Source of the DNA: Candidatus Omnitrophota bacterium
GTDB taxonomy: Bacteria > Omnitrophota > Gorgyraeia > Duberdicusellales > 4484-171
DNA: 64,000 nt
Assembly (NCBI GenBank): GCA_043823745.1
Contig: JBDRAN010000006.1
Location: 40,176 to 104,175 of the forward strand
Reading direction: 5' to 3'
Numbering within the stretch: the stretch's first letter is position 1; each line of letters starts with the position of its first letter. Below are positions 2,197 to 53,539 of this stretch, piece by piece. A program made the position numbers and the translations under genes. A model generated the notes under the pieces. That model was given only the letters and a program-made list of their open reading frames with translations. It was not told where the DNA came from and did not search any database.

Positions 2197-5100
2197 ATGC
2201 GAGGCCGCGCTAAGCGGCTTGTGTCGATAAAACACGTAAAGAGTATACGCCTGGCTATGACTACCCAAAAGAAAAATAAAAGAATACCACGAAAGCTAAA
2301 ACCAAAACGTAGCCCTCCGGCGAGCCATCTGTTTGACGTCACCGGTTACGGCGTCTGCCGATACCTGGTGAACGAAGAAAGAATACTTTTTGCAAACCAA
2401 GGTGTCATTGACATTATGGGCTTACGCTGCAAACCCGAAGAGCTTACGGGAAAATGTTTTGATGATATTTTCGCTCTTATCGATAAGCCGGACACGATTA
2501 AAAAAGCGCTTGCATCGGGCGATGAAATTATTCATACCGAATGTCATTTCAAGACCCTTACCGGGGAAGAAAAATGGATTTTACTCGACGCTCGAATCAA
2601 GAGAAATCCCGCAACGACGAAAAAAACAGCTGAAGCGATCATCCGGGACATTACGTATCTAAAACTCTCCGAACATAATCTTGCAGCCCTCAATCAGAAG
2701 CTGAAGATGCTCGTTGAATGCAGCCAGACGATCGTGCACGCTACCGACGAGCAGGAATTACTGAAAAAAATATGTGACATTATCATTACCGAAGGCGAAT
2801 ACCGCTTCACCTGGATCGGTTTGGCACGGGACAATGAGCAGAAGACCGTCGAACCAATTGTCTGGGCAGGCTACGAGAAGGATTACTTACAAACAATCCG
2901 CGTAAGTTGGGGCATCAATGAATATGGCCAAGGTCCTGTGGGAACCGCCATACGCACCGGTAAATCAAATATCAATCGCAACATCCTGGTTGACCCTCAA
3001 TACGGTCTCTGGCGCGAAGAAGCATTGCGGCGCGGATATAACGCCTCAATTTCACTGCCGCTTGTAATTGATAACCTCTGTATCGGCGCGTTAAATATCT
3101 ACGCCAGCTGCGCCGAAGCATTTGACCCTGACGAAGCACTCCTTCTTTCGGAATTAGCCAGTGACATTTCATACGGGATCACCACCTTGCGTGCGCGCAA
3201 CGAAAAAAATAAAACTGAGGCTGCGCTTGCCGAAAGCGAGGAACGCTTCCGTAAAGCATTTGAAACGACCGGCATCGGCATGGCACTGGTAGCATTGGAT
3301 GGTCGATGGCTTAAAGTCAATCGCACCCTCTGTGAAATCGTCGGTTACAGCACCGAGGAGCTCCTTTCAATGAGTTTTCAGGATATTACTCATCAGGATG
3401 ATCTGGGAGCCGACGTCAGTTACGTGCAAAGGATGCTCCGTAGGGAAATTCTCTATTACCACCAGGAGAAACGCTATGTGCACAAACAGAGCCACATCAT
3501 CTGGGTATTGCTGAGCGCTTCTCTTGTGACCAGCCCCACCGGAGAACCACTCTATTTTGTATTTCAAATACAAAATATTACCGATCGTAAAAAAGCAGAA
3601 GAAGCGTTGCGTGCGGGGGAGCGCTTTCTTTCAAGCTGCTTCACCAGCATTCAAGATGGCATCAATATACTCGATAAAGAAATGAATATCCTCCGGGTTA
3701 ACCCGGTAATGGAAACCTGGTACGCTCATGCAATGCCCCTGGTCGGAAAGAAATGTTATGACGCCTATCACAGCCGCACGCGGCAATGCGAAATCTGCCC
3801 CAGCGCGCAAACAATCGTATCAGAGAAAGCCGCGTATGAAGAAGTCCCTAAGCGCGGGCCGGGCGGAGAAATTGTCGGGTGGCTCGATCTCTACAGTTTT
3901 CCCCTTATTGACCAGGAAACAGGAACCATGAAAGGCGTCATTGAGTATGTCCGCGATATTACCGAACGTAAACGTGCCGAAGAAGCGCTGAAAGAAAGCA
4001 AGGAGCGGTTTGAACAGATCGCCAACAACGCGTATGAATGGGTTTGGGAAATAGATCAAAACGGCCTTTATGTGTACTCAAACCCCGCGGTTGAAAAGAT
4101 ACTCGGATACCGGCCCGAAGAACTTGTAGGGGAAAAATTTTTTTACGATTTCTTCACTCCTCAAAGCACAGAGCAACTCGCCATGGATGCGCGTGCCGCC
4201 TTCCAAAAGCAACAGCCGATTAAAAATTTTATTAATCCCTGTGTTACAAAAACCGGAGCCATCGTCGTCCTTGAGTCAAACGGAACTCCGATTCTTGACA
4301 AGCAAGGAGCCTTTTGCGGCTACCGCGGTATCAATGTTGATGTTACCCAACGCAAAGCGCTTGAGGAACTCAAAGATAACTTCATTAATACGATTTCCCA
4401 CGAGCTTAAGACGCCTCTCTCTATCACTAAAGAAGGCGTGAGTTTAGTGCTCGATGGGATACTCGGTGACATCAATGAAAAACAGGAACGAATTCTCACG
4501 ATTGCAAAGAATAACGCAGACCGTCTGGCGCGTATTATCAGCAAACTCATCAGTATTTCTCTGATCCAGTCAGGGGAAATGGAGTTCAAACGCAAGCAGA
4601 CGGATATTGTGATGATAGCCCGGCATATCATAGCTGATTACCAGGCACGCGCGCAGGATAAGGGGATTGAATTGCGCGGAGTGTTTGAAAAGGAAAAAAT
4701 CACGCTGTATATCGACGAACGCAGCATCACCCACGTATTCACCAATCTCTTAGATAATGCCGTGAAATTTGCGAAAGCCGGTGCAATCGAGCTATCAATC
4801 AAAGAATTGCCCATGACCGTTGAATGCAGCATTACCGATATGGGGGCGGGAATTGATGCCGGAAAAATTAACGACCTTTTTGATAAATTCCACCAGCTGG
4901 AGCGCGGTGACGACGCGGGTGAGAAAGGAATCGGCATCGGCCTTTCAATCACACACAGCATCATTCAAATGCATGAAGGTAATATTTGGGTTGAAAGTCC
5001 GGCGTTTCCCGATGCCGCGCAAGAGCATAGGGGGACCTGCTTTGTCTTCAGCCTGCCAAAATACGACGCGGCAACCATTGCGCAAAAACATATCAGAAAC

Positions 5101-5487
5101 GCTATTGAAAAAGCTGCCAGGCAAAATGAGAAAATGTCTGTGCTTGCCGCTGTACGCGCTCGCGACGAAGCGCTCCTTAACGAATTGCCCCGCGAAGCGT
5201 TCTTTGTGCTCTTTCAAGATATTGAAGAAATTTTAAAAGGCGGCCTGCGCAGCGGCGGAGATGTGGTCCTGGAAGACACCGGCGATATTGTCTTGGTCCT
5301 CGGGGACTGCGACAAAGAAAGCTCATACGTGCTTATCATGAGACTTCAGAAACTTATCAATGAATACCTGGAAAGCCGCAATCTTGCCGGAAAAATCAAC
5401 ATACACTTCGGCAGCGCAACCTACCCCGACGACGCTGCCGATGAAGCAACGCTCTTGGCAAAAGCAAAAAATATACAGGCAGATTGA
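2197..5487 (+). CDS. multidomain sensor histidine kinase (PAS-GAF-PAS-PAS-PAS-HisKA-HATPase) with a C-terminal degenerate GGDEF-like tail
   Basis: HisKA H-box ISHELKTPLS; HATPase G-boxes (DNAVKFA…GIGIGLSITHSIIQMHEGNIWVES); several PAS segments and one GAF; ~200 aa after the ATPase resembles an inactive GGDEF (GDIVLVLGD…SATYPDDAADEATLLAKAK). Confidence 0.85.
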   Translation: MRGRAKRLVSIKHVKSIRLAMTTQKKNKRIPRKLKPKRSPPASHLFDVTGYGVCRYLVNEERILFANQGVIDIMGLRCKPEELTGKCFDDIFALIDKPDTIKKALASGDEIIHTECHFKTLTGEEKWILLDARIKRNPATTKKTAEAIIRDITYLKLSEHNLAALNQKLKMLVECSQTIVHATDEQELLKKICDIIITEGEYRFTWIGLARDNEQKTVEPIVWAGYEKDYLQTIRVSWGINEYGQGPVGTAIRTGKSNINRNILVDPQYGLWREEALRRGYNASISLPLVIDNLCIGALNIYASCAEAFDPDEALLLSELASDISYGITTLRARNEKNKTEAALAESEERFRKAFETTGIGMALVALDGRWLKVNRTLCEIVGYSTEELLSMSFQDITHQDDLGADVSYVQRMLRREILYYHQEKRYVHKQSHIIWVLLSASLVTSPTGEPLYFVFQIQNITDRKKAEEALRAGERFLSSCFTSIQDGINILDKEMNILRVNPVMETWYAHAMPLVGKKCYDAYHSRTRQCEICPSAQTIVSEKAAYEEVPKRGPGGEIVGWLDLYSFPLIDQETGTMKGVIEYVRDITERKRAEEALKESKERFEQIANNAYEWVWEIDQNGLYVYSNPAVEKILGYRPEELVGEKFFYDFFTPQSTEQLAMDARAAFQKQQPIKNFINPCVTKTGAIVVLESNGTPILDKQGAFCGYRGINVDVTQRKALEELKDNFINTISHELKTPLSITKEGVSLVLDGILGDINEKQERILTIAKNNADRLARIISKLISISLIQSGEMEFKRKQTDIVMIARHIIADYQARAQDKGIELRGVFEKEKITLYIDERSITHVFTNLLDNAVKFAKAGAIELSIKELPMTVECSITDMGAGIDAGKINDLFDKFHQLERGDDAGEKGIGIGLSITHSIIQMHEGNIWVESPAFPDAAQEHRGTCFVFSLPKYDAATIAQKHIRNAIEKAARQNEKMSVLAAVRARDEALLNELPREAFFVLFQDIEEILKGGLRSGGDVVLEDTGDIVLVLGDCDKESSYVLIMRLQKLINEYLESRNLAGKINIHFGSATYPDDAADEATLLAKAKNIQAD

Positions 5488-5539
5488 CCATCGCTTTTAC
5501 CACAAAGACGGCGGGATCTGTGGCGCAACAAGGAGTATC

Positions 5540-5911
5540 ATGGCTAAAAAAATTCTTTTTATTGAAGACGAACCGGATCAAAGGACTATTGTTGAAGTGC
5601 GTCTTCGAACGGCCGGCTACGACGTGATCACCGCCTGCGACGGCGAAGAAGGGCTCGCGAAGGCCCGCTTGGCGCGGCCTGACCTAATCCTCCTTGATAT
5701 CGTGATTCCCAAGCACGATGGTCTTGAGGTGTGCGCGATACTGAAAGGAGACTCGGGGACAAAGAAAATTCCGATCATCATGCTTACCGCGTACGGAGTT
5801 AACCGCGTGGAGGAAAAAAGTTTTGCTGCGGGTGCCGACGACTGCATTTCTAAACCATATGAACCACAAGAGCTGTTGCAAAAAATCAAATCGCTCCTGG
5901 GGAAACAATAA
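5540..5911 (+). CDS. stand-alone response-regulator receiver (CheY-like)
   Basis: KKILFIEDEP…LILLDIVIPKHDGLEV…KIPIIMLTA receiver signature; RBS AGGAG 5 nt upstream of ATG 5540; the tracked ORF start 5360 is a spurious N-terminal extension. Confidence 0.85.
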   Translation: MAKKILFIEDEPDQRTIVEVRLRTAGYDVITACDGEEGLAKARLARPDLILLDIVIPKHDGLEVCAILKGDSGTKKIPIIMLTAYGVNRVEEKSFAAGADDCISKPYEPQELLQKIKSLLGKQ

Positions 5912-5929
5912 TACACGAGGGGAGTCACG

Positions 5930-11993: not shown

Positions 11994-12842
11994 AAGACCG
12001 TGGGCGGCAACAAACTCCGTGAACCGTTCAATAAACTCTTGTTGATAAACATACGGCCCGTCGTTATGGTCCCCTGGAAGGATAAAAAATTCTTTCGGAG
12101 AAGCTGCATTCTCATAGAGCTTGCGGCCGATGGCCAAAGGAACGATGCTGTCTGCTTCTCCATGAATAAAAAGTTTAGGCACAATGAGGCGGCTCGCGCG
12201 CGCCTGCGCATCAAACTTAACGCTGGCAAGATTCTTAAACAGCACTGAAGGAACCCAGGGGAACATAACCCGCCCCATATCGATAGCTGAACTAAACCCT
12301 CCCTGGATGACTACTGCTGCAACCGTCACCGTAGAGGCGACATCAAGCGCAACCGCACTGCCGATTGATTCACCATAGAGGATAACTCTGCGAGGCGCAA
12401 TCGCACGCGCGGTAACCAGATAGCGATAGCTTGAAAGAGCGTCCTGGTAGAAACCGGCCTCGGATGGCTTTCCCGAACTCTTACCGTAGCCACGGTAATC
12501 GAAAATCAAAACCCCGAACCCTGCGTCAGAAAATAGTTTGAGCAGCAAAACGCGGTCACCGATATTCCCGGCGTTGCCATGACAAAACAAAATAACCGGC
12601 GAAGAAACCGGACCTTCAAGAAACCACGCGTTAATCGTTTCGCTGCCGGAAGGAATCATCACCTCTTCAAAGTTTACACCCACCGCCGATGGCGTGACCG
12701 TGATATCCCGAGACGGGAAAAAAATCCCTGTTTTTTCAAAATACTTCAGAAAGAGAACGAGCGCAAGCAACGCGACTCCCACAACAATAAAACCATTCAA
12801 CAGAATTAACATAATCTTTTTTGTAGAAAAATAATGCACCAT
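11958..12842 (-). CDS. membrane-anchored alpha/beta hydrolase
   Basis: N-terminal TM, HGNAGN oxyanion-region motif, nucleophile elbow GESIGSAVA (GxSxG); 36-nt 3' convergent overlap with ygiQ. Confidence 0.7.
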   Translation of the reverse strand: MVHYFSTKKIMLILLNGFIVVGVALLALVLFLKYFEKTGIFFPSRDITVTPSAVGVNFEEVMIPSGSETINAWFLEGPVSSPVILFCHGNAGNIGDRVLLLKLFSDAGFGVLIFDYRGYGKSSGKPSEAGFYQDALSSYRYLVTARAIAPRRVILYGESIGSAVALDVASTVTVAAVVIQGGFSSAIDMGRVMFPWVPSVLFKNLASVKFDAQARASRLIVPKLFIHGEADSIVPLAIGRKLYENAASPKEFFILPGDHNDGPYVYQQEFIERFTEFVAAHGLSSQARAPKRTP

Positions 12843-12959
12843 GTTATAATACGCTCGTTTATTATTATAACGTTGCTTCTTAAAATCGCAAGCTGGTGGA
12901 AGTTACGCTTCGTCCGCGTGTACAGTCTAGAAGCCGAGTGTACAGTTCTTACTATTGGC

Positions 12960-13160
12960 CGTATAAGGTTGCGTCTATGGGCTGCGCACCAGCGCGTCCC
13001 GAAGGGGCTGCGAGGCTCGTTTCGGTTGCGTCAAACGCCAATCGTCTTTATTCTTAATAATGTTTTTGACGCAACCGATCTACGTATGACGTGACCAGAT
13101 GCACACCAGTGCGTCCCGCAGGGGACTGCGCAACCGCTGGACGTATGACGAGACGATACA
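12960..13160. repeat. intergenic direct repeats and short GC hairpins between divergent hydrolase and maf-rlmD genes
   Basis: ~32-nt imperfect direct repeat (gcgcaccagcgcgtcccgaaggggctgcgaggc at ~12983, gcacaccagtgcgtcccgcaggggactgcgcaacc at ~13107); 12-nt inverted repeat ggttgcgtcaaa / tttgacgcaacc; acgtatgacg duplicated. Confidence 0.4.
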
Positions 13161-13286
13161 GTGCAAACATATCTTATAAATAATACAATCCCAGGATACG
13201 AACGAGTGTGAAGCGTACCTGAGGCCTCCTCGCAGAGGGTGGTCGACGGACGACAAAGAAAGCCTTACGCTTACGTATATATTATT

Positions 13287-15197
13287 ATGAGTATTATCCT
13301 TGCTTCAGCATCCAGTCGCCGAGCAGAACTTCTTAAAAAAATCACTGCTGATTTTATGGTTGTGACAAGCAGCGTTAATGAAACACTCATTACGGAACGC
13401 GATCCGGTGCGCTTCGCGCTTGCGGCAGCGGAAGCAAAAGCAAAAGATGTAGGAACACAATTCCCTCAAAGCACGGTCATCGGCGCCGATACCATCGTGG
13501 TCTTACATGATACCATATTAGGAAAACCAAGCGGAATTGAGAACGCACGCGCGATGCTGCACACTCTCTCAGGTACAACGCACCTCGTTATCACGGCGCT
13601 GGCGCTCTATGCGCATGACGAGAACAAACTACTCCTTACCTATCAGACCAGCGCGGTAACCTTTAAAAAACTGACTCATGAGATGATTGAAACGTATCTG
13701 GCGCGCGGTGACTTTGACGACAAAGCGGGTTCATACGCGATTCAAAATGTCGGCGATACCTTTGTAAGCGCCGCGGAAGGCGATTACGACAATATAATAG
13801 GGCTTCCGGTGGAAACCCTGCGCAAGCTTCTTGAGGCCTTCATGACCCCGTTACTCACCCTCGATATTATTGATATTGCGCTGCCCGATGGTTACGGCGT
13901 AGCTAAACACGAGGGTGGCGTTATCTTTATCCCTCAAGCGGTTACCGGTGACACTATAGCTGCTACGATCGTAAAAGAAAAACCCCGGCTGGCCTATGCG
14001 CACATGATCGGGCTCACCGCGCTTTCAGCCTCTCGCGTAACAGCAACGTGCCCCCATTCCGGCATCTGCGGAGGGTGCATCCTGCAAGAGCTAAACTACC
14101 CTGAACAACTACGCCTGAAAGATCGACACCTCTACCAGACACTCGGTCGTATCGGAAAAATCGATACAAGCCGCGTTCAGAAAATACCCATTACCCCGTC
14201 ACGCCACCAATACTTCTATCGTAATAAAATCGAACTTTCATTTTCAACGCGCCAAGAGAAAGCCATCCTCGGCTTCAAAGAAAGAGCCTCAGGGGCCCCT
14301 AACCAGGAGGCGATCATCCCTGTCAGCCAATGCCCCATCGCAAACCCGCGCGTCCCGGAAATTATTTCCCGCGTTTTGGAATTCGCAGACGCAGCCGATC
14401 TGGCTGCGTATAACCCCCACAAAAAAGAAGGTGTGTTAAAACGCCTCATCATTAAAGAAGCAAAAGCCTCAGGGAAATTGATGGTGATCCTGGTAACCAA
14501 ACAAGCCGCCGTCACACGCTACGCACAACGCTTACATGAAGCACTCTCTTCGATAGAACCGATAGAAAGCCTCTGCTGGGCAATCGAAGAACGCGATGAC
14601 ACCCGCAGCTTTGAGCAGAAAATACTTATCGCCGGAGAGAATTGCATCAGGGAACGCATCGGCGATTTCTCCTGTAATGTCTACCCTGAAACATTTCTTC
14701 AGGCTAACAGCGAAACTGCGCCGCGATTGTATGAACACATCAAACAACACCTCGGGCACGATGAAAAGATCTTAAGCCTCTACTGTGGCTCGGGCCTTCT
14801 TGAGCTTTCGATAGCCCATGCGTCGCAAGAAATTACCGGCATCGACACGAACGCAAACAATATCTCCTGCGCCAGAGAAAACTGCCAGCTCAACAATATT
14901 ACCAATTGCAATTTCTCTCCTGGCAAAGCCGAGGAGGCACTCAAGAAAAAGAGAGAGCGCGATTGCAACACCCTTATCCTTGACCCTCCACGATCGGGCT
15001 TAAGCCCTGAAGCATTGCGGCGCGTCTGCTCGTATGGCGCTGCAAAGATTCTGTATGTCTCCTGCAACCCGGCAAGCCTGGCGCGCGACATAGCGATACT
15101 TGCCAAACCCTACCACCTTGCCAGCGTAGCCGCCTTTGATATGTTCCCGCAAACCGGCCACCTCGAAATTGTGGCGATACTGCGCAAAAAACAATGA
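13287..15197 (+). CDS. fusion protein: Maf-like nucleoside-triphosphate pyrophosphatase (N) + RlmD/RumA-type 23S rRNA (uracil-5)-methyltransferase (C)
   Basis: N-term ~185 aa Maf (ILASASSRRAELL…VIGADTIVV…GKP…AIQ); continues in frame without a stop into TRAM domain, 4Fe-4S Cys cluster (CPHSGICGGC) and SAM-MTase (LDPPRSG…YVSCNP). Confidence 0.75.
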   Translation: MSIILASASSRRAELLKKITADFMVVTSSVNETLITERDPVRFALAAAEAKAKDVGTQFPQSTVIGADTIVVLHDTILGKPSGIENARAMLHTLSGTTHLVITALALYAHDENKLLLTYQTSAVTFKKLTHEMIETYLARGDFDDKAGSYAIQNVGDTFVSAAEGDYDNIIGLPVETLRKLLEAFMTPLLTLDIIDIALPDGYGVAKHEGGVIFIPQAVTGDTIAATIVKEKPRLAYAHMIGLTALSASRVTATCPHSGICGGCILQELNYPEQLRLKDRHLYQTLGRIGKIDTSRVQKIPITPSRHQYFYRNKIELSFSTRQEKAILGFKERASGAPNQEAIIPVSQCPIANPRVPEIISRVLEFADAADLAAYNPHKKEGVLKRLIIKEAKASGKLMVILVTKQAAVTRYAQRLHEALSSIEPIESLCWAIEERDDTRSFEQKILIAGENCIRERIGDFSCNVYPETFLQANSETAPRLYEHIKQHLGHDEKILSLYCGSGLLELSIAHASQEITGIDTNANNISCARENCQLNNITNCNFSPGKAEEALKKKRERDCNTLILDPPRSGLSPEALRRVCSYGAAKILYVSCNPASLARDIAILAKPYHLASVAAFDMFPQTGHLEIVAILRKKQ

Positions 15198-42107: not shown

Positions 42108-43178
42108 ATGATTAACTACGACAAGCTTAAAGAAGAACATGCACTGGTTTCCGAGCAGCTTTCGCATGCCGCCGTCCTGACGAACCGAGAGAAATATCAG
42201 CACCTAACCCGGCGTTTTTCGTTTCTTGAAAAAATAATGGCGATGCTGAAGCTGCGTGATGAACTGTTCGCGCAAAAAGCCCATCTCAAAGAGATCTTAA
42301 CCGTTCCCAAAGAGGAAGAAGAGGTTAAGCATATGGCACGCGAGGAACTCGCGGCGGTTGAGAATAAAATCAGCGCGCTCCAAGAGGGTATCGAAGAGCG
42401 GCTCTTTGAAGAAGATGAACCCGAAGGTGACGTTCTCGTTGAAATTAGGGCTGCTGCCGGAGGGGAAGAATCAGCCCTTTTTGCGGCAACCCTTTTAAAG
42501 ATGTACTCTAAATATATCGAGAGAAAAGGCTGGAACTTCGAACTTTTGAGTTCGCACGCCACGGATATCAAAGGCTACAAAGAAGTCATTTTTTCGGTAC
42601 AGGGCAAGGGGGCCTACACCAATTTAAAATTTGAAAGCGGCGTACACCGAGTGCAACGTGTGCCCGCGACGGAGGCAAGCGGCAGGATTCATACGTCAAC
42701 CGTTACGGTCGCGGTACTCATTGAGCCGCAGGAAGTTGAGCTCAAGCTTGGCCCCGAAGATCTTAGAATCGATACCTATCGCGCCGGAGGAGCCGGGGGC
42801 CAGCATGTAAACCGTACCGATTCTGCCGTGCGCATGACGCATCTCCCAACCGGCATCGTAGTCTGTTGCCAAGATGAACGCTCCCAGTTAAAAAACAGAA
42901 CAAAAGCGCTCAAGATAATGAAAATACGTATTATGGATAAGATGGAACGCGAGCAAACAGCTAAAATCACGAGTGCCCGGCGAGTACAGGTTGGAACGGG
43001 TGAGCGCAGCGAAAAGATACGCACCTACAATTTCCCCGAACGCCGGATCACAGACCACCGTATCAACTTCACCACATACCGCTTAGAAGAGGTCCTTGAG
43101 GGTGACCTTGCGGAGCTTTTTAAAGCGCTGACCCACGAGGAACGAAAAAAACTATATGAGCTTAAAGGATTGGTGTAA
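42108..43178 (+). CDS. prfA: peptide chain release factor 1
   Basis: GGQ motif ([13 protein letters not shown]), PxT-region; 356 aa. Confidence 0.9.
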
Positions 43179-43950
43179 AAAATACGAGCGGGACTTCAGC
43201 CCGCGTGACTTACACTTTCTCATGAAACACTGGCCGGCCGCCGCGGACCAAACTCCTCTTGATCGAGCCTCCTGCGTCATGCTTGAAGATGTAAGGACCC
43301 GGTACGGCCGCGGTGAACCCATGGCCTACATTATTGGAAAAGAAGAGTTCTACGGCAGGGAATTTCTGGTTAACGCGCATACACTTATCCCGCGTCCGGA
43401 AACAGAAATTATCGTAGAACGCGCTGGTGATCTCATCAAACATGCGGGCCTCAAGCGTATCCTCGATCTTGGCTGCGGATCCGGCAACATTGCCATAACG
43501 ATTCAAAAACGCTCTTCGGAAACCATTGAGGTCGTTGGCGCCGACATCAGTATGCAGGCACTTCGGGTAAGTCACCATAACGCGCGCAAACATGAGAGCC
43601 CGGTTATGCTGGTGCAGACAGATCTCTTCGCATGCTTTAAGCACCATGTTTTTGACATGATCGTAGCGAATCCTCCGTATGTTGAAGCGGAGTACCTGGC
43701 ACAAAGCTCTTCGCTCGCGCATGAACCGCGCGTCGCGCTCTGGGCAGGCACCGATGGTCTCTCCTTTATACGGACTATTATCGAGAAAGGGTATCGTTAT
43801 GTGACCCCCCACGGATATGTACTGATCGAGGTTGGGGCGCAACAAAAAGATGCAATTAATAAACTTCTTGATACAATACAGGTATACCGTAATCGAGAAT
43901 GGATCACGGATTACAGCAATAACGACCGGGGGATATTACTCCAAATATAA
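43156..43950 (+). CDS. prmC: release-factor glutamine N5-methyltransferase
   Basis: NPPY motif, SAM-binding LDLGCGSG; follows prfA with 23-nt overlap. Confidence 0.8.
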
Positions 43951-53464: not shown

Positions 53465-53539
53465 CGGGGCGTGGCTCAGCCCGGCTAGAGCGCTTGGTTC
53501 GGGACCAAGAGGTCGGTGGTTCAAATCCACTCGCCCCGA
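53465..53539 (+). tRNA. tRNA-Pro (anticodon CGG)
   Basis: Cloverleaf: acceptor CGGGGCG/CGCCCCG, D-stem GCTC/GAGC, anticodon stem CTTGG/CCAAG with loop TTCGGGA, T-arm GGTGG-TTCAAAT-CCACT, discriminator A; CCA not encoded. Confidence 0.85.

Follow-up and report, generated by a model that had tools for sequence, protein, structure and literature searches.

Why should a nucleotide pyrophosphatase and an RNA methyltransferase share one polypeptide, and is such a polypeptide real? The question is raised by a gene at 13287..15197 (+ strand) in a 64,000-nucleotide stretch of ‘Candidatus Omnitrophota bacterium’ DNA (contig JBDRAN010000006.1, assembly GCA_043823745.1; the whole stretch is hereafter called the window), which an initial, sequence-only reading had described as an in-frame fusion of a Maf pyrophosphatase with an RlmD/RumA-type 5-methyluridine (m5U) methyltransferase. 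Judged from comparison with its relatives, the fusion gene is genuine and anciently formed, and its product very probably is a true two-enzyme protein in which both active sites are competent.

Two enzymes in one reading frame

The coding sequence, identified from the list of open reading frames (ORFs), profile matches and an identical NCBI gene call, lies in a single ORF that runs on the + strand from a GTG at 13239 to a TGA at 15195-15197, with neither an internal stop nor a frameshift within 13239..15197. Translation from the ATG at 13287, which is the start favoured by the homologue alignment and by the NCBI gene call on an identical contig, gives 636 amino acids (aa). No further Maf or RumA-type gene was found in the 64-kb window. 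As the sequence-only reading had stated, a complete Maf and a complete RumA/RlmD-type enzyme are present in this one frame: profile matches cover both, the catalytic residues are kept, and the motifs it had quoted (ILASASSRRAELL, GADTIVV and GKP in the Maf half; CPHSGICGGC and LDPPRSG in the methyltransferase half), together with the junction LEAF-MTPLL, are all found in the protein.

The N-terminal half (residues 1-185; 13287..13841, + strand) was assigned to the YhdE subfamily of Maf on the basis of Pfam, NCBIfam, residue alignment and structural comparison with Foldseek. PF02545 (Maf) matches residues 3-184 over positions 2-186 of its 187 (181.1 bits against a cut-off of 27, E 2e-53), and TIGR00172 (maf) gives 165.3 bits (cut-off 117.15). 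Residue numbering was taken from explicit alignment to YhdE (4p0e) and Bacillus subtilis Maf (1ex2). The Maf signature S-R-E-K-D-K, formed in YhdE by Ser10, Arg13, Glu33, Lys52, Asp70 and Lys82 (PMC3899018), is complete (S9, R12, E32, K51, D68, K80), and so is the subfamily motif R-T-Q (R11, T69, Q153), which corresponds to YhdE Arg12, Thr71 and Gln153 and has the counterpart W-Q-E in YceF (PMC3899018). As both were confirmed by alignment to YhdE and B. subtilis Maf, the N-terminal half is, by its residues, a YhdE-type Maf; all of these positions (S9, R11, R12, E32, K51, D68, T69, K80 and Q153) are invariant across a 27-sequence alignment of fusion proteins. The fold is shared with YhdE-subfamily structures (4p0e, 1ex2 and 4heb; TM 0.87-0.90, identity 36-40%), with TM 0.90 to B. 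subtilis Maf (4heb), and the Maf domain of human ASMTL (2p5x) is also among the matches. Maf enzymes carry out a metal-dependent conversion of nucleoside triphosphates to monophosphates and pyrophosphate. Those of the YhdE type cleave deoxythymidine triphosphate (dTTP), UTP and CTP as well as the triphosphates of 5-methyluridine (m5UTP), pseudouridine (pseudo-UTP) and 5-methylcytidine (m5CTP), with lower Km for the modified substrates (PMC3899018). By analogy, the N-terminal domain would hydrolyse pyrimidine nucleoside triphosphates, including m5UTP, to monophosphate and pyrophosphate.

The C-terminal 451 residues are, by homology, a RumA-family RNA m5U methyltransferase comprising a TRAM domain, a predicted [4Fe-4S] site and an S-adenosylmethionine (SAM) domain. 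TIGR00479 (rumA) covers residues 201-627 (model positions 4-432 of 432) with 306.9 bits against a cut-off of 183.55. The TRAM-like beta-barrel at the start of this half (residues 186-245; 13842..14021, + strand) was not detected by the Pfam TRAM model in the window protein at E<=0.01, although the model detects it in several fused homologues; it is supported by the TIGR00479 coverage, by the strands of a predicted beta-barrel at 190-245 and by a Foldseek alignment to RlmCD over ~454 columns, and the region aligns with RlmCD and RumA from their N-termini. The cysteines predicted to bind the cluster, C255, C261 and C264 (C-x5-C-x2-C) with C349 (14049..14333, + strand), were recognised by their invariance in alignments. 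The SAM-dependent catalytic domain (residues ~451-636; 14637..15194, + strand), identified through PF05958 (tRNA_U5-meth_tr, residues 460-634), invariant residues and Foldseek, contains motif I (LYCGSG), D520, DPPR at 566-569 and, from the alignment, a predicted nucleophile, C593 in YVSCNP (15063-15065, + strand), and a predicted general base, E627 (15165-15167, + strand). The four cysteines, D566-P-P-R569, C593 and E627 are invariant across the 27-sequence alignment, whereas G501 and D520 of the SAM-binding motifs are invariant or conservatively replaced; the cysteines are likewise invariant in every fusion class and in the standalone relatives. By position, as judged from the alignment ranges to solved relatives, the cysteines would correspond to RumA C81, C87, C90 and C162, and C593 and E627 to RumA C389 and E424. 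Enzymes of the RumA family flip a particular uridine out and methylate it at C5 through a cysteine nucleophile, and the C-terminal domain would accordingly be expected to methylate one specific uridine in rRNA or tRNA.

An AlphaFold2 model built from the alignment had a mean predicted local distance difference test score (pLDDT) of 88 and a predicted template modelling score (pTM) of 0.80. The best match of its methyltransferase half in the Protein Data Bank (PDB) was Streptococcus pneumoniae RlmCD (TM 0.90), followed by Escherichia coli RumA (0.84) and the Pyrococcus abyssi tRNA U54 enzyme (0.82), represented by entries 5zq0, 1uwv and 2jjq, respectively. No solved structure spanning both halves was found in the PDB.

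The RNA target of the methyltransferase half may be U1939 and/or U747 of 23S rRNA, or U54 of tRNA, and homology does not assign one. Ranked by sequence, the solved relatives are the P. abyssi tRNA (U54-C5) methyltransferase (2jjq, 180 bits), the Pyrococcus horikoshii U747 rRNA enzyme (8z62, 178 bits), RlmCD (~173) and E. coli RumA (139). NF009639, the strict model of E. coli-type RlmD, scores 229.6 bits, well under its cut-off of 458; NF002910 and TIGR02085 (RlmC) and TIGR02143 (TrmA) also stay below theirs (181.5 vs 558, 158.9 vs 429.5 and 90.8 vs 334.65 bits, respectively). The attempt to assign a target by homology thus failed, with all the narrow models under their cut-offs and the solved relatives mixed, and the initial label of an RlmD acting on 23S rRNA could not be upheld, given that NF009639 is far from satisfied and the best solved sequence relative is a tRNA U54 enzyme.

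The junction and the age of the fusion

The two domains meet without a linker in the sequence ...LLEAF-MTPLL..., and the junction (13833..13844, + strand) consists of GAGG at 13833-13836, a 5-nt spacer and an ATG at 13842-13844 that encodes Met186. By its motif, this GAGG-N5-ATG is a possible internal start. Its resemblance to a former gene start is also what could be said for a sequencing or assembly artefact, or for a very recent loss of a stop codon limited to the genome of the window. Against this stand three records that share the identical sequence: besides the window, the same 636-aa protein is encoded on NCBI contig JAHJZK010000288.1 (GCA_018827245.1; 100% identity over 2986 bp), and a Logan assembly holds a truncated copy of it. 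Furthermore, the same junction occurs in more than 50 divergent homologues (31-45% identity) in which its length is constant, and methionine occupies the junction column in just 2 of 27 aligned homologues. The junction, from which the sequence-only reading had suggested a lost stop, therefore does not point to a recent loss. Because the junction is constant in divergent homologues and Met186 is not conserved, we consider the fusion to be old; the identical records together with the conserved junction led us to reject an assembly error and a recent loss of a stop, which we regard as extremely improbable.

Homologues were searched for in a collection of 5.8 billion proteins and, separately, by an exhaustive HMMER scan of 1.84 billion cluster representatives. 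The recurrence in related genomes, for which the initial reading had suggested a search, was borne out by more than 50 fused homologues. The former collection yielded ~42 full-length proteins (626-655 aa) of the same architecture and 37-45% identity, and the latter six full-length 50%-identity clusters at 40-43% identity and three further clusters at 31-32%, including one from candidate division WOR-3. Hidden Markov models (HMMs) made from the two halves recovered 56 sequences with the order Maf then methyltransferase, a number that includes the window protein, the fragment P0001 (100% identical to it) and a few more truncated sequences; in nearly all of the 56 the domains switch at residue 185/186. 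Source names of the fused homologues comprise Aminicenantes/Aminicenantales, Ratteibacteria, Margulisiibacteriota, Acidobacteria and WOR-3, in addition to the Omnitrophota of the window, and the mean column identity of the 27-sequence alignment is 59%. Alignment thus shows a fusion conserved across several phyla, with the predicted catalytic residues of both halves retained.

In a neighbour-joining tree of methyltransferase halves most Maf-first fusions form one clade, while the window protein, P0035 and a WOR-3-type Maf-first group (P0067, P0071 and P0081) interleave with standalone enzymes on long, poorly resolved branches. A single origin of all Maf-first fusions was considered and, given this interleaving, is only a possibility; the WOR-3-type group, distant from the main group in both halves, may represent a third fusion event.

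Three individual loci should be mentioned here. In the metagenome-assembled genome (MAG) GCA_936416015.1 (L089, 4001-5915) the fusion appears as two abutting ORFs of 311 aa (4001-4936) and 325 aa (4938-5915), which would reflect an error (frameshift or stop) or else a gene that is decaying or has split again. A high-GC fused homologue (L002, 6001-8199) leaves the consensus right after DPPR and enters a low-complexity Arg/Pro-rich frame, likely through a frameshift in the MAG assembly. A ‘Candidatus Omnitrophota’ chromosome (CP070684.1; L072, 6001-7137) carries a standalone RumA-type gene whose product (~391 aa) matches residues 254-635 only, lacking Maf and apparently TRAM too; not every Omnitrophota genome therefore has the fusion.

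Reverse-order fusions and gene adjacency

The same two enzyme families were also found joined in the opposite order. Four proteins (P0096, P0151, P0189 and P0183; 628-641 aa), representing four 50%-identity clusters, begin with TRAM and tRNA_U5-meth_tr and carry Maf at residues ~405-610; loci with this arrangement (L084, 5001-6899; L085, 4155-6053) come from metagenomes, and for P0189 independent contigs from ENA and JGI both show one called gene. The family keeps every catalytic residue and shows the YhdE-type pattern R-T/S-Q, two members having Ser for the motif Thr. In the neighbour-joining tree their methyltransferase halves make up a clade of their own, remote from the Maf-first fusions, and the Maf halves score 85-110 bits against the window Maf, under more than 100 standalone Mafs, compared with 160-218 bits for the main Maf-first group. 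The separate methyltransferase clade and the low Maf scores mark it as an independent fusion event.

Adjacency of separate genes was observed as well. Among 81 loci (L001-L081) scanned with HMMs from the two halves, one Clostridia gut MAG has maf followed by rlmD with a 54-nt gap (L004, 6001-8016), and a related Clostridia gut MAG has rlmD followed by maf as separate adjacent genes (L079, 5386-7499). The linked Mafs in all arrangements examined are of the YhdE type, and all the methyltransferases keep the Fe-S and catalytic residues. As read from these genes, the link between Maf and an m5U methyltransferase is recurrent though rare. We also considered a maf-rlmD operon as a general ancestral state and found it unsupported, adjacency being confined to L004 and L079 and the closest standalone genes being unlinked. 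In a search with Maf only, the 120 best matches were all standalone, which is an effect of candidate selection; in a local phmmer comparison the Maf halves of fusions reach the scores of the best standalone Mafs.

Other partners and neighbours of the two families were noted. P0085 (738 aa) combines a flavin adenine dinucleotide (FAD) synthetase/riboflavin kinase (RibF) with a RumA-type methyltransferase, P0057 an AlaX-like tRNA-editing domain with Maf, P0056 Maf with a renal-dipeptidase family domain and P0058 Maf with VWA. Standalone relatives often adjoin nucleotide or RNA-modification genes (L083, 35-2096; L086, 83-1668; L087, 4001-5540; and the contig of P0047): one standalone RlmD is followed after 11 nt by a HAD hydrolase, a second has a PNP_UDP_1 nucleoside phosphorylase as its neighbour and a PfkB kinase at a distance of ~3.4 kb, a PfkB kinase comes after one standalone Maf, and another Maf gene overlaps tail-to-tail with a dihydrouridine synthase gene.

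Why the two enzymes may be linked

Both activities would be kept in the fusion, as suggested by the invariance of their residues, and the following scheme could connect them. The methyltransferase half would write m5U into stable RNA; upon degradation of that RNA, m5UMP would be released and re-phosphorylated to m5UTP, and the Maf half would remove m5UTP, keeping ribothymidine out of random re-incorporation into RNA. Selection would keep the fusion by tying the dose of the m5U ‘writer’ to the dose of the m5UTP-removing enzyme. The coupling would consist of co-expression and stoichiometry without substrate channelling between the sites, since m5U would remain in stable RNA until the RNA is degraded. 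In Arabidopsis, blocked degradation of 5-methyluridine causes m5U from RNA turnover to enter mRNA and slows growth (PMC10415118).

As an overall explanation we favour, with somewhat better than even confidence, an anciently fused two-enzyme protein together with a selected dosage tie between m5U writing and m5UTP removal; this estimate blends its two components. We propose only tentatively, at a little under even confidence, that the link exists for the sake of m5UTP sanitation. Still more tentative is the general form of the proposal, a recurrent ‘writer plus sanitiser’ pair in which a YhdE-type Maf destroys the ribothymidine triphosphate derived from degraded m5U-containing RNA and in which dosage selection linked the genes at least two to three times. 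If true, this would be the first comparative-genomic tie in bacteria of a specific RNA-modifying enzyme to the clean-up of its own free nucleotide, and would allow direct tests of what Maf does in vivo.

A number of observations weigh against the sanitation proposal. Of the 81 loci scanned, 76 are non-fused or truncated rlmD loci, and only two of these (L004 and L079) have maf within ~6 kb; the ranking had favoured both, since each of their two genes matched the query. Among standalone enzymes, the nearest RlmDs (P0047, P0046 and P0044) and Mafs (P0310 and P0313) are not beside a partner gene. Both domains are also fused to unrelated partners (RibF-RlmD, AlaX-like-Maf, Maf-dipeptidase), and fusion alone is therefore weak evidence. 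The finding that all linked Mafs are YhdE-type discriminates little, because outside the proteobacteria most bacteria have only a YhdE-type Maf (PMC3899018). YhdE-type Mafs also act on dTTP, UTP and CTP, and the relevant substrate need not be m5UTP. The fusion is not mechanistically required, as the two reactions are apart in time and space. The Rosetta-stone link put forward in the initial reading was strengthened by the reverse-order family, by the adjacency in Clostridia and by the YhdE type of all linked Mafs, and weakened in that the proposed chemistry does not need a fusion.

The main rival to the sanitation proposal is that two unrelated housekeeping enzymes were fused neutrally: a maf gene and a neighbouring RumA-type gene would have lost the stop between them long ago and the enzymes stayed independent, re-splitting being unlikely and no functional relationship existing. 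The rarity of the link among standalone loci, the unlinked state of the closest standalone relatives and the joining of both domains elsewhere to unrelated partners are all in keeping with it, as is the MAG in which the gene is split into abutting 311-aa and 325-aa ORFs (L089). On the other hand, Maf and the methyltransferase came to be joined on at least two occasions, with the domains in opposite orders, adjacency occurs in both orders in related Clostridia MAGs, and the fusion has been kept with a fixed junction at only 31-45% identity in several phyla; an association of Maf with methyltransferases was, moreover, independently noted in eukaryotes and archaea (PMC3899018). We consider a neutral origin unlikely. 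Another possibility, that Maf serves as a non-catalytic module of the methyltransferase, binding nucleotides, RNA or the pre-ribosome or mediating regulation by pyrimidine nucleotides, would agree with the lack of a flexible linker at the junction and with the pTM of the model, which is compatible with a defined domain arrangement. However, the six catalytic signature residues are invariant in every fusion class, which is unexpected for a purely structural module, and the three YhdE specificity positions are also kept in each class (with Ser for Thr in two reverse-order members), so that this role appears improbable.

A further alternative concerns the label of the methyltransferase half and not the fusion itself. 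If this half were no RlmD orthologue, being instead a tRNA U54 methyltransferase or a dual-site enzyme like RlmCD, Maf would be linked to the main cellular source of m5U and not to a single position in rRNA. The lead of 2jjq among the solved sequence relatives, the structural match to RlmCD and the low score of NF009639 point this way, with the RlmC and TrmA models under their cut-offs as well; against it, the broad ‘rumA’ model TIGR00479 was passed. To our knowledge, the bacterial members with TRAM and Fe-S characterised to date are rRNA enzymes (RumA and RlmCD), which counts against a tRNA U54 enzyme. We regard this relabelling as rather unlikely.

Upstream region and gene neighbourhood

The fusion gene is preceded by a divergent intergenic region of 444 nt (12843..13286) with short direct and inverted repeats, and its promoter probably lies within this region. 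The repeats span 12914-13154 and include two pairs of direct repeats of 25-26 nt (12983-13007/13100-13124 and 13070-13095/13129-13154) and one 13-nt pair; a perfect 14-nt inverted repeat is located at 13022-13035/13065-13078. The region has an RNA fold z-score of -2.25. A search of 12750-13350 against Rfam at E<=1 gave zero matches and hence no regulatory RNA family upstream, and a 27-nt motif at 13104-13130 has no second copy in the window (1-64000). The start of the fusion gene has no Shine-Dalgarno motif, whereas about one third of the gene starts in the window have a ribosome-binding site of the AGGAG type.

Long ORFs of the window (1-64000) are almost all on the + strand, and its sole Rfam match is one tRNA (53465-53539). 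An ORF at ~43156-43950 encodes a second SAM methyltransferase-like protein that is unrelated to the fusion gene. The Obg protein encoded in the window has a 100% match, named ‘Candidatus Omnitrophota bacterium’, on an NCBI contig of 172 kb; the next-best matches are also from Omnitrophota.

Comparison with known systems

The in vivo role of Maf has been argued to be either cell-division arrest or nucleotide-pool clean-up, the clean-up model being based mainly on in vitro substrate preferences. The fusion, the independent reverse-order fusion and the adjacency in a third group add independent, evolution-based support for the clean-up model and jointly point to m5UTP as a relevant substrate. The fusion would also make a compact experimental system, with two activities in one protein. 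It implies neither a new enzyme class nor new chemistry.

The initial reading knew of no description of the architecture. In fact, databases already hold it under automatic names (‘RlmD’, ‘dTTP/UTP pyrophosphatase’ or, at JGI, ‘RumA/MAF protein’), mostly with one half named, and fusions or adjacency of Maf and methyltransferases had been noted before (Tchigvintsev et al. 2013; PMC3899018); on the other side, a search of the literature on Maf with RlmD, RumA, m5U or ASMTL found no description of the bacterial fusion, with subscription journals largely outside the search and a published account possible. For proteins automatically named ‘RlmD’ in several uncultivated phyla, the annotation thus omits half of the protein.

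Each of the two domain families has been well characterised. Compared with Mafs of the YhdE subfamily, such as E. coli YhdE and B. subtilis Maf (BSU28050), the N-terminal half has the same fold and the same S-R-E-K-D-K and R-T-Q residues; the characterised members are standalone proteins of ~190 aa, whereas the C-terminal Maf helix of the window protein runs straight into the TRAM domain. The methyltransferase half shares with RumA/RlmD (1uwv/2bh2), RlmCD (5xj1/5zq0) and the archaeal enzyme 2jjq the TRAM, central and SAM domains, the four cysteines, the Cys nucleophile and the Glu base (TM 0.82-0.90), but is just 24-29% identical to them, falls under the equivalog cut-offs and carries an N-terminal Maf. 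TRAM is absent from RlmC and TrmA, as is the Fe-S cluster from TrmA; the window protein differs from them in having TRAM and the four cysteines. The reverse-order fusion combines the same two enzyme families with conserved catalytic residues, but in the opposite order, with a shorter methyltransferase (~400 aa) and a Maf distant from that of the window.

The nearest described parallel is in human ASMTL and other eukaryotes, where Maf is fused to a methyltransferase, and in some archaea, where maf lies beside a methyltransferase gene, from which a functional relationship was inferred (PMC3899018). The Maf domain of ASMTL hydrolyses the same modified pyrimidine nucleoside triphosphates, and the domain joined to it is a predicted methyltransferase whose substrate is not known (PMC3899018). 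The window protein resembles ASMTL in its Maf part and not in its partner, which belongs to PF05958 and matched no O-methyltransferase family. The ASMTL partner is of the ASMT-like O-methyltransferase class, and not an RNA m5U methyltransferase. In contrast to it, the partner in the window protein would make one modified base whose triphosphate the Maf half would remove, and the bacterial pairing is in this respect the more informative of the two.

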